From: Stylophora pistillata
Lineage: Eukaryota
Length of the DNA stretch: 64,000 nucleotides
Direction: 5' to 3'
Assembly: GCF_002571385.2 (NCBI RefSeq)
Contig: NW_019217964.1
Span: 127,829 to 191,828, forward strand
In this document: one piece after another, positions 10,955-19,775 of the stretch
Layout: the number at the start of each line of letters is the position of its first letter
Position numbering within the stretch: the first letter of the stretch is position 1
Notes under the pieces: model-generated
Told to the model about the DNA's origin: nothing
What the model saw: only the letters and a program-made list of their open reading frames with translations
The model's database searches: none
Made by a program: the position numbers and the translations under genes

Positions 10955-12422
10955 TTAACATTCCTTGTAACTTTCACAAGTGAAGCCGAGTGGGAAAACA
11001 CAGTGAGAACTCCAAGCGCCGAATTTCTCACAACATATATCGTGTTCAAGACATCCCTGATGAAAACAGCAATCTCCACAGACCCAAGACCAGCAATAAC
11101 AGTTTGGACCACACATACCAGTGCAATTATTATTTCTGGGATCAAGTAACAAGTCACAGCGCTTTTGTCTTGTGCTATGGTGCCCAGAAATTTCATTTCC
11201 AAAATCGCGTGTTGCCCTCAATTCATGTGGGATCTGAATGTCTGAAGTCTTCAGGATACTGTAACACAGGGCATGAAATGGCTTTAACATATCCGGTTGA
11301 GTCACATTTTCAGCAAGTGTTGCTGACAAGCGTTCTAGGAGTTTAATTTCCGGTTCTTGCCGCAGCTCTCTTATGGCCTCATTGTAATGAGTTTTTAACG
11401 CCGTTAGTTCGACTTGTGTTTCCTCGGTGGTCCGATCCATGTTCAGAAACTCGCGAAGACTGTGCGACGCTTTACGAATGGCTTTGGGAACGTAAAACAC
11501 TGATGGACCGCGCCTAAAGAGGATTGAAAAAAATCATTGATAGGGAATTAATTCTCCGTAGACGAAATTTATTCCAGCTTTAAAATAGCGCGTGGTCTAT
11601 TTTTTCGAGTCAATTAGTATTCCAGTAGTTCTGGCGCAGGATATTTCGTTGTACAAACTGTGACATTCTTTTAAGAAACTTTCAAACATGTGGTTGTTAT
11701 CTGTGATATACGGCTTTCAAAAAATGTATATGTAGGAAGGATTATCTCACGTAATGCCGGCATGACAGTGCAATTTCTAAATGTTGTCGATTTACAAATT
11801 GACACCAGAAAACTGTGTTTCTCCTTCCCTTTGTTTACACTAAGACAGATTCACTACAAGTGCGCCGGTAAACAACTTCACCATTGTCCTAGGGCTTCTT
11901 TTTAATTTTAAATAACCCCATGTAGTTCTATAGCCGACTATGACATTACCGGTATTTCCCACCAAACGCTATGAATGACGGTACAGAATAGAATAACAAG
12001 GTTTGAGAAGGCTCGAGGGCGTTTTCCAACATAACATAGCTGCTGACGATTGATAGAAAAATATCTTTCATCAAACGAGCACGGGTCAATGACGACTCTT
12101 CTTACGATTGCGTAAATAAAAAACGTTTCACTTACCCTAGGAAATCTTGATCTATAATCTTGTAATAGAACATGTTTGTACCAAGTTTTTGGTAAAACAC
12201 TATTATTTGCCCGGTTGTCTTCATCACTTTCATCGAACCTTGTTCAATATCAAAACAAATCCCCAAGGTCTGGTTGTTATAGTAGCATCCTTTTACTCGA
12301 TGCTCTGAGTAATCCTCGAAATGCAGCGCTTGAGTTATAGATTTGCAATCACAGCTTGCTACTGAGCAACAAAAAACTGCCAAAGTTAACAAAAAAGAAA
12401 TTGGAGTTTTTGAAGAAGACAT
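10955..12422 (-). CDS. Secreted Cys-rich precursor, paralog A (exons 12422-12136 and 11513-10955; 281 aa)
   Basis: Signal peptide MSSSKTPISFLLTLAVFCCSVASCDC; phase-2 GT-AG intron (GG|gtaagt...ctttag|G) joins the two ORFs in frame; RQKR site followed by a 67-aa 14-Cys domain; clear paralogy with 15160-16335. Confidence 0.85.
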
Positions 12423-15159
12423 TTCACCGTGAAAAAACGCTCGAAGTTTCAAACGTGAAGTGAAGCGACTGCTGTTGTTTGAGAATCCCGATGGAGGATT
12501 CACTCCAATCCGTGTGTAGAAGTTTGTGCCACAGTGTATGGCAACTTGATTCTTAAAGGTATTGTCTCTCTGGCCAAAGTTCACTTTTTAAACGTGACCA
12601 GCAGTTTCAGTTTCTCATAAGCCGGCCACAAAAAAATTCCGCCGGATCTTATTCCGTTTCATCATTATCAGAAAAATATATACATCTGTGCACATGCTTT
12701 CCTTTTTTGGCAACATCTGTTCTTACACTGCTGAAGGAAGAAATTCTCAGCTATAATTGTTTATGTTTTCGATCCCCTAGTTTTTTAAACGAAGCAGTTT
12801 AAGAGCTACTCGGACAGCATATTTTTGTTATTCAAGAAGTTACCAGACGGCTTTGCTTAAGGAAATCGGTGAAATTTTGACCACCGCAATGTTTGTTTGC
12901 TTCAGGATGTCATTTTGGAGATAACTAAACTTGGGATGATGCTTAATACTGAACCGTTTCATGATTTCTTTTCACTGCGGAAGTATTGCAGAATCTCAAT
13001 CATTAGAAAAAGGAATGTGCGTCTTGATTTGGAGCAATGAAACCCCTGATCAGTTTAATTAAATATTCTGAACTAAAATAGAGCGAAAAAAATTAATTAT
13101 TTGCACTAATAGTTTGGTGGTGGTTCATCCACAGGTTAGCTATGTGTCCTCTGTTTTCAGGTCGCATTTGAATCTGTAGGAAAGAAAATCAGAGGAAAGC
13201 CATGGTTCATTAGATTGGACAGGAAAATACTGAACCTGCATGACTCCAAAGGGATGAGTGTCAGATTAGAACTATTTCGATGTCTCGGGCCGTCGGAGTA
13301 ATAACTCGTGGAATTCGTGTCAAGGCTGGGTTTATCGAAGTTTGGAGCTGCTAGATGATACATTTCAAGATTCGTTTCGACCCGAGATACAAAGTTTAAC
13401 ACTGTTTTGGTGAGTAAGAAAGAAAACTCTGAATGGGAAATATAAACCAATAGAACAAGTAAGAATGGAAAAGAATGTAAGAGACGAACTTGAACAATTT
13501 GAGCTCTTACTTTCAGCTCTCATCCTTGTGGTTCTATTGACCCATGAGTGTTACTGATGACGCCTTTAATCCGTATACAGATGAATATCTGTCAACTCAT
13601 TGATAATTGAGGATGTTTAGATACACTCGAACAGCGATTTTTCACATTTTTTTACATCCAGTCAACAACTGGAGCATTAAATTCAAGTGTTTACCGAAGC
13701 AAGTTCGCCAGCTTGATTATCCAGGCGGTTAAGAGCTGCGTGCATTCCAAGGGTAACAAAAGAGACATTTCATTCAAGTCAACTTTAAAGAGACTTCGAG
13801 GTAGATTAATTTTCTTTCTCTCTTTATACCCACTGAATATTCATCAGGCTGTAAAATACGATAATTAGATTAATTTTTTCTATCTATGCTAAGAAACTAA
13901 ACTTGACTTAACAAATTACTTATATTACCAAATTATCAGTTCAATAACTAAAAGCTTTTTTTCCATGAATAGCGTGTTTCTAATTTATAAATTCAAGATA
14001 AAGCTAGCGATTCTTTCTCTAAGATTGCAGGGTGAGCTGTTCTAGAGGGTTGCGTCGCTGTAATAAATAATATTTTTCAATTAGCAAGTTCACGGTAAAG
14101 GAACAACCAGTTTGTTGACAGAGTCCCTTAGGTAATCGCGTGTTTCATCTCGTATGATAAATTGGAACGAGAAATACCCAGGAACAAGGCCATACATTTT
14201 AAATAATAATCGCGCATTCGGAAGAGTGTGGAATGATTTTCGACAAGGAAGCATTTCCCAATTCGGATCCCATCGAAACTGAGGTTGAATGATCGGACCG
14301 GCAGACATTGAAGCTGTATGGCTGAAAATAGAAACAGAGATTGAGGGAACTTGTTTTTTTTTTGTTTTTTTGTTTTTTTTTTTTCAGTTTTTTTCCAATT
14401 TTTTCCACTGTACTATTTGTCACAAAACAAAACAGCTTTGGAAGCTCTGATCTTAACTTAAATGGTTTCTAAATGAACTTAGCCTAAGCCAGGATTATTC
14501 AGTTGTGTATAAATCGAATATGTTAAACTTCATTTAGATCGCTAACTCGTAATGGCATGAGTAGTGTATGGCACAGCTTGGCTTTTCTTTGTAAAATAAA
14601 ATTAATTTAAGGCTGCATCTAATTCATCTAACCATTGCACCGCTCTTGTTTCTTTGATGTTGTAGGGACAACAGGTGGGAAGTTGTTGCCATTCACGGTG
14701 ATTTTGTGAAAACCTCTACAGCTGGAATCTTCTTCGTCGCATCGCCAAGAAAGGTATATAGTTGGCAGAAAATCGAGGAAGGGGGAAAAAAGTACACCAG
14801 GTGTTTATTTTGAATGATGGAGAATTGAAGAAGTCTTGAGAAACTTTTGGAAGGGGTATCCTGGCCTATGCGGGGCCGAACTTTTAAAACGGGTAAAAGA
14901 AACTGAAGCTAGACTACTTGATAAACCACTGACTAAATGTCTTTATTTCCCATGATGCTGATCAATACTGCTCCTCCACCTAGACATGCACCCGATGAGA
15001 CAATAATTATAGCAGAATAGAGCTTATTCAGAACCCCTGGAGAGAAAGTACAGCCGCATTCAGAAATAAGTGAAACTGACTAAATGAAACTACTACAATT
15101 GAGAGTCAAAGTCAGAACACGCGTTCTCTTGTTTTTCCCGAGTATTACATCGAGGCGCA

Positions 15160-19039: not shown

Positions 19040-19208
19040 CAACTTGACTGCATTAATTGGAGGCAGCCATAGATTGTAAGAAATAGTGAACTGTGAATGT
19101 TAAGCCAGCGATGAGTAATGCTTTCATTTAGGCTCGATCATTTTGGTATTCATTATCATTTGGTAAAACCAGAGTTATCTCAAAAATGTTTTTCGTCCTC
19201 TTCTCGGT

Positions 19209-19775
19209 TTACCACCACCGCCACCTCCGATTTAATCACCCCTTATAACCTCCAAATTCGGAGGATGTAAAACCGCAGGAATGTGGAAAAAGGCAGTGTG
19301 GACTTGTTGGATTTTCTCTACAATAGAGATCGTGTTCGTAACAGCCCTCATGGCTGCAGCAATCGCCACAGACCCAATTCCAGCACGAAAACCCTTTGCC
19401 ACACAATCCTCGGCAGCCATTCGCCGTCGGGTAAATGATTGATTTTTTGACCCATACAGTGCACTCATGAAGACATATCTTACTGAATCAGCTTACCCAA
19501 CAAATGCTTGATCGAAGACTTGGTAGAGAAACATTTTGGTAGTAAGTTGCCTGTAATTTAGAACTTCATTGCCATTGGTCTTCAGTAATTTCACGAATCC
19601 TTTGCGCATTTCGAAACAAACACTCAAGGTCAGATTGTATAAGTAACATCCTTGGACTTGGCCCAGAGACTGATTCTTTCGGCGAAGTCCTTTTAACACT
19701 AGAAGTTGCTCTTGTGAAGGATATAATTGCGACTACGTTCACAAGCATGGTTAACTGTGACGGAAATTCTGTCAA
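19209..19775 (-). pseudogene. Pseudogene, paralog C of the secreted 14-Cys precursor family
   Basis: Exon 1 homologous (GCYLYNLTLSVCFE...FLYQVFDQAFVG|gtaag) but frameshifted near 19690-19696; the acceptor and exon-2 prodomain are deleted; residual mature domain CRGLCGKGFSCWNWVCGDCCSHEGCYEHDLYC...FTSSEFGGYKG*LNRRWRWW* has lost several Cys and the last Cys position is TGA. Confidence 0.85.

Follow-up and report, generated by a model that had tools for sequence, protein, structure and literature searches.

The window analysed here, a stretch of 64,000 nucleotides (nt) of the genome of the coral Stylophora pistillata, carries within positions 10955..19775 three tandem minus-strand paralogues, denoted copies A, B and C (Table 1), which an earlier note had described as a family of secreted proproteins with a cysteine-rich C-terminal domain. 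The tandem arrangement holds, and the paralogue matches in the genome, with E-values from 2e-19 to 5e-10, are far beyond chance. Copies A and B are intact and encode products of 281 and 285 amino acids (aa), respectively; the exon 2 translation of copy A is 100% identical to the annotated S. pistillata "uncharacterized protein LOC111331916". Both products have hydrophobic N-termini (Kyte-Doolittle 11-residue maximum of 2.6) and end in a domain that contains 14 Cys residues, as predicted, and is immediately preceded by a basic site, RQKR in copy A and RQNR in copy B, the latter reading RQKR in the RNA contigs. The copy B domain consists of 76 aa, is basic (pI 9.2) and strongly cationic, and carries a Trp/Lys tail.

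Copies A and B are expressed, spliced genes. The phase-2 intron that the earlier note assigned to all three paralogues is present in A and B at the same position, after the same Gly, and is reduced in copy C to the donor site, with no full intron. The exact splice junctions of both genes occur in RNA contigs from 3 of 4 runs; two of these three runs resemble one data set, in which the short side of the copy B junction is only 30 letters long, so that at least two independent sources attest the splicing. Copy B is far more polymorphic than copy A (19 differences in 781 nt vs 3 in 787, RNA contigs of one run), and 7 of the 11 examined differences in copy B exon 2, among those listed, change an amino acid.

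Copy C is, judging by its sequence, a pseudogene. It retains the splice donor at 19496, from which the Cys-domain remnant is separated by about 60 bases; the helical region and most of the intron are gone. Of the 14 Cys positions, 9 remain, and an early stop lies at 19238-19236. The orthologue of copy C is intact in three Pocillopora species, and residues ~96-192 of the intact Pocillopora protein have no match in copy C. Copies B and C are separated by a repeat-rich stretch, where RNA contig depth is high and drawn from many loci, and this stretch may be linked to the deletion. In the whole S. pistillata genome, the Cys domain has six matches on three contigs. The three matches outside the window (G000:C782, L007 6908-7669 and L008 1311-2851; G000:C73, L009 7010-7315) comprise a two-exon gene with the same phase-2 intron, in which no in-frame ATG was found in exon 1, a divergent copy in which Arg occupies a core Cys position, and a remnant in which the Cys domain alone was found. 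Of the birth-and-death evolution proposed in the earlier note, one decayed copy is upheld, and the "lineage-expanded" part of that proposal does not fit six genome matches.

A profile built from the six Cys domains of this genome was compared with 1.84 billion representatives of clusters at 50% identity and matched 479 clusters at E<=0.001, 172 of them at 1e-10. Members of the family are encoded by corals (Oculina, Pocillopora, Montipora), sea anemones (Nematostella, Actinia), sponges (Oopsacas, Amphimedon, Corticium), the choanoflagellate Choanoeca and one Picozoan. Most of the matches are unnamed, and those with names are annotated as hypothetical or uncharacterised, the one exception being an automatic "SMB domain" label. 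Scanning GTDB with a sequence pattern yielded 40 loci, of which 29 bear titles of myxobacterial taxa, 4 of delta-proteobacteria, 2 of Proteobacteria and 5 of other kinds; among the latter, locus L035, from a contig recorded as Ekhidna sp., seems eukaryotic and is probably a contaminant from a sponge. The bacterial members, of ~260-340 aa, align over the full length with ~25% overall identity to the eukaryotic ones, and identity in the best segment, the Cys core, is 49-68%. Most of them start, as read by eye, with a hydrophobic stretch ending in Cys, and would accordingly be lipid-anchored lipoproteins. The family is rare in the myxobacterial phylum, with 2 strong matches among 401 genomes, one of these being the seed itself; one Polyangiaceae genome (G003) has four copies (L038, L041, L042 and L052). 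In an unrooted FastTree phylogeny of 128 rows, the bacterial rows form a single clade (support 97), and A and B are deep paralogues common to other corals, with A grouping with Oculina.

These relationships bear on the view, implied by the earlier note, that the family is a recently expanded venom or signalling peptide family specific to cnidarians. Such a family would be consistent with the tandem copies including one pseudogene, with the polymorphism of copy B and with the existence of anemone members; it is highly improbable in the face of six matches in the genome, the deep paralogy of A and B, and homologues, aligned over their whole length, in sponges, a choanoflagellate, Picozoa and bacteria, none of which possess cnidocytes. 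Lineage specificity is therefore refuted, and by sequence comparison the family is older and wider in range than had been held. No literature on the family turned up in full-text searches with LOC111331916, DUF8213 and eleven further accessions or in topic searches at the level of abstracts, subscription papers and supplementary tables lying outside this search and the cell atlas of Stylophora and the venom proteomes of anemones being sources that could carry these genes under other identifiers. The family, known from sequence, is uncharacterised, as the earlier note held, and both it and, apparently, its folds are new.

Conservation was assessed in an alignment of 142 full-length members out of ~200, from which fragments, near-duplicates and very long rows were left out (copy A numbering). 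Nine positions are invariant in all 142: C226, C230, G231, C236, W237, C241, C244, C250 and C275. H253 is kept in 141 members and D254 in 139, which makes this polar pair as conserved as most of the cysteines; D243 (128/142) and H247 (125/142) are conserved as well. The HD dipeptide is also present in 104 of the 108 sequences parsed from 109 additional matches, the other four being pattern mis-parses. The invariant C230-G231 sits 23 residues upstream of the helical CxxHDxC motif. In the N-terminal region, G45, Y/F47, F57, PE150-151 and a G-x-x-G..P motif in the helical part are conserved family-wide.

The AlphaFold2 model of copy A (mean predicted local distance difference test score, pLDDT, of 82.6; predicted template modelling score, pTM, of 0.79) comprises eight strands (32-104) and four helices (112-186), together with a loose linker that contains the RQKR site and the Cys domain. 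In the latter, one main helix, 248-260, carries the His-Asp pair and is accompanied by two 4-residue turns; modelled alone, the domain shows the same elements with a pLDDT of 77.8. No Pfam match was obtained for any of the 142 members, and a PDB sequence search gave no match to the family. With Foldseek at E<=0.001, neither the full model nor the Cys domain matched the PDB, and the Cys domain alone had no match among viral proteins.

That a polar His-Asp pair has been retained all the way from myxobacteria to corals speaks for a catalytic or metal site. The pair fits an enzyme-like site better than a variable toxin or ligand peptide; the earlier reading of an undescribed effector stands insofar as the family is uncharacterised, and it had overlooked this pair and, being based on this DNA, could not include the bacterial protease partner. 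The freed Cys domain could instead be a non-enzymatic binder (a receptor ligand, or a defence peptide binding membranes or glycans), with His-Asp, D243 and H247 in a structural or metal-binding role. We consider this unlikely, given that near-invariant polar pairs over such a range are more typical of catalytic sites than of ligands and that coral and bacterial Cys cores share 55-65% identity; the failure to find an enzyme fold in the PDB, the tiny size of the domain (67 aa with 14 Cys), the possibility that D243 and H247 complete a metal site, and the divergent charges of the paralogues (pI 4.7 vs 9.2) all speak for it.

The organization of the proteins suggests release of the Cys domain by proteolysis. 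Copy A, and copy B as read in RNA, show the layout of a convertase-processed proprotein, with a signal-like N-terminus and R-x-[KR]-R in a loose linker before the Cys domain, so that the secreted proprotein layout proposed in the earlier note is upheld. In most corals, RxKR immediately precedes the first Cys, and the linker varies in length. Rows were assigned to groups from their place in the tree and their resemblance in sequence, irrespective of names. On this grouping, 22 of the 28 cnidarian-like rows and 46 of the 95 other eukaryote-like rows carry a [KR]R dipeptide in the 45 aa that precede the core, and none of the 19 bacterial rows does. In copy A, aa 201-220 have a pLDDT of 53-60 between confident flanks, which we count in favour of cleavage.

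In 20 of the 40 loci, the gene that comes next, on the same strand and with its start no more than ~100 bases away, encodes a trypsin-family serine protease. Pfam PF00089 matched in all six cases tested, and the His and Ser motifs were recognised with a pattern in 17 loci and visually in the remaining 3, of which one is incomplete. No second protease of this family was found elsewhere within the 40 loci. The protease accompanies 18 of the 26 rows of the main clade, as well as L052 and the more distant L028; of the 20 loci that lack it, one is the contaminant L035 and two have at most 11 bases downstream. Among the four copies in G003, the protease comes after L052, two others have none downstream, and L042 reaches the contig edge. 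The neighbour proteases have a signal-like stretch at the start, together with an N-terminus of the I[TV]xG type, and most end in a Cys, a hydrophobic stretch and Arg residues, resembling by eye the MYXO-CTERM signal; none of three neighbour proteases, one of them incomplete, matched the NCBIfam model (MYXO-CTERM, TIGR03901). As separate observations, in the subclade of L016, L017, L024 and L025 an animal-type haem peroxidase is encoded downstream instead of the protease (a BLAST cluster of four; Pfam in two), and a gene for an FHA and sigma-54 activator protein adjoins the family gene, upstream or downstream, at L016, L018, L022, L027 and L030 (5/5 tested).

The protein might also act without being cut, at the surface or in secreted form, with two working parts: the beta-meander would bind lipid or substrate and the Cys domain would act in place, RxKR being secondary and the bacterial protease merely co-regulated. 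This would account for the family-wide conservation of the N-terminal region, for the basic site being absent in bacterial rows and in about half of the other eukaryote-like rows, and for the pTM of the model, which suggests a packed whole. The position of RxKR in most corals, right in front of the first Cys, the variable, low-confidence linker and the tight downstream placement of the protease gene in 20 loci make it, in our judgement, improbable.

Taken jointly, the His-Asp conservation, the coral basic sites and the bacterial protease neighbour, found also outside the main clade at L028, lead us to prefer, tentatively and with a probability somewhat short of even, an ancient family of secreted proteins in which a latent hydrolase is freed by proteolysis and carries out PLA2-like (phospholipase A2-like) lipid hydrolysis on microbial or prey membranes. 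The precursor would be secreted and, in bacteria, lipid-anchored; cutting of the linker, in corals at RxKR by a convertase of the furin type and in bacteria in trans by the co-encoded surface protease, would free the small disulfide-rich domain, the N-terminal part having served as a folding aid and latency cap. PLA2-like activity is proposed because Cys-Gly followed by a helical CxxHDxC recurs in secreted PLA2 (sPLA2); His253 is predicted to be the catalytic His and Asp254 a calcium-binding Asp, in the sPLA2 manner. The substrates would be membrane lipids of prey or microbes, in feeding or antimicrobial defence, which the cationic, Trp-tailed domain of copy B would suit.

A bolder version, which we regard as doubtful, posits a cross-kingdom effector system: a His-Asp hydrolase of ~65 residues with a new fold, the smallest of its kind, latent under a novel beta-meander/helical prodomain, would be an ancient weapon held in common and used to lyse or digest microbes, switched on by a co-encoded surface protease in predatory myxobacteria and by convertase sites in bacteria-eating eukaryotes (choanoflagellates, sponges, corals). 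If the preferred explanation holds, one proprotein would have switched from a co-encoded protease to furin-type processing, and a new class of antimicrobial or digestive enzymes would be at work in the control of coral and sponge microbiomes and in myxobacterial predation. The family is in any case large and has no Pfam model, fold match or mention in the searched literature; its 7-9 kDa domain carries a near-invariant His-Asp pair, and the bacterial two-gene unit supplies a candidate activator.

Elsewhere in the window lie several single-frame genes (Table 1), among which the product with a TPM/MOLO1 domain and a RING finger looks, by domain content, like a receptor-type E3 ligase.

Table 1. 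Features of the window.
Feature	Positions	Strand	Description
Copy A exon 1	12136..12422	-	Hydrophobic signal-like N-terminus, most of the predicted 8-strand beta-meander
Copy A intron	11514..12135	-	622 nt, phase 2, GT-AG; spliced out in RNA contigs, 3/4 runs
Copy A exon 2	10955..11513	-	Helical region, linker, RQKR, 14-Cys domain, stop
Copy A RQKR	11159..11170	-	aa 211-214; candidate proprotein-convertase site
Copy A C-terminal domain	10958..11158	-	67 aa, 14 Cys, acidic, pI 4.7
Copy A C250-x-x-H253-D254-x-C256-C257	11030..11053	-	Main helix; candidate active or metal site
Copy B exon 1	16058..16335	-	
Copy B intron	15740..16057	-	318 nt, phase 2, GT-AG; spliced out in RNA contigs, 3/4 runs
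Copy B exon 2	15160..15739	-	Helical region, RQNR, 14-Cys domain
Copy B RQNR	15402-15391	-	Assembly reading; RQKR in RNA contigs of 4/4 runs
Copy C exon-1 remnant	19497..19748	-	First ATG out of frame with conserved exon-1 frame
Copy C Cys-domain remnant	19236..19448	-	HD kept; acceptor and helical region missing upstream
Repeat-rich stretch	~17640-19030		Between copies B and C
Gene	2140-5319	+	Single frame, 1060 aa; SH3 and DC-STAMP domains
Gene	7839-8951	+	Single frame; tRNA intron endonuclease domain
Tandem repeat	23841-24806		30-base unit, flanking an N gap; open in all frames
Gene	35311-36513	-	Single frame; signal-like N-terminus, TPM/MOLO1, membrane helix, RING finger
Gene	43914-44645	-	Single frame; TB2/DP1/HVA22
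Gene	56345-57292	+	Single frame; RING and TRAF-like zinc finger

With the secreted PLA2 of groups I/II/III (PF00068, PF05826), the family shares predicted secretion, often in a pro-form, a disulfide-rich structure and the order of Cys-Gly and helical CxxHDxC, an order that is similar also in the PLA2 exons of this coral. In sPLA2, the second of two long, antiparallel, disulfide-linked helices carries the catalytic Asp (Asp99). The sPLA2 calcium loop lies ahead of the CCxxHDxC site (PMC10674158); the family has GCxxHDxCC, with G in place of the first Cys and with the His-Asp pair, the second Cys and the helix present, and it adds an N-terminal region of ~190 aa to a Cys domain of ~67 aa. Several results weigh against PLA2 membership: the calcium loop (YGCxCGxGG or WCGxG) is absent, CxG[ML]CGxxC standing there instead; the second long antiparallel helix is missing from both models, which have one 13-residue helix only; HHalign against PLA2 aligned eight columns, with the loop part unaligned, at 11% probability, barely above 60 shuffles; and no PLA2 profile or fold match was found (Pfam for the 142 members, PDB sequences, Foldseek). 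Membership in the sPLA2 family, lacking a canonical calcium loop and the second helix, is unsupported by these profile and fold tests; by analogy, the Cys domain may have a PLA2-like action while standing outside that family.

The Tox-PLA2 domains of bacterial polymorphic toxins, defined by the motifs DxC[ST] and CxxHxxxYxN (PMC3482391), are likewise spread over bacteria, fungi and animals and form a C-terminal domain with D-C and CxxH, comparable to DCC and CxxHD in the family. Unlike these toxins, the family has no CxxHxxxYxN in the alignment and no RHS/ALF repeats or immunity gene seen in the loci, and it has a lipoprotein-like N-terminus and a protease neighbour. By language-model features, the nearest named cluster to the C-terminal domain is DUF8213 (PF26641), with a score of 0.75 (below the lead threshold of 0.9) and, unlike the ~67-aa domain, a length of 132 aa. 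The cnidarian Cys-rich peptides (SCRiP, ShK, Kunitz) and TGF-beta-type proligands share the signal, pro-region, basic site and Cys-rich C-terminus; the family differs in that Pfam matches none of its 142 members, in its full-length bacterial homologues and in the conserved His-Asp, and membership was rejected because its cysteine framework is unmatched in Pfam.

The closest parallel for the proposed processing is the surface protease VesB of Vibrio, which activates cholera toxin (PMC11980579) and thus provides a precedent for the protease logic. In VesB/MYXO-CTERM systems, a C-terminally anchored trypsin-family surface protease processes a secreted pro-protein, as the putatively anchored neighbour protease would do in the bacterial loci described here; the substrate of VesB is unrelated to the family. 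The logic of a protease-activated secreted proprotein is, accordingly, already known.
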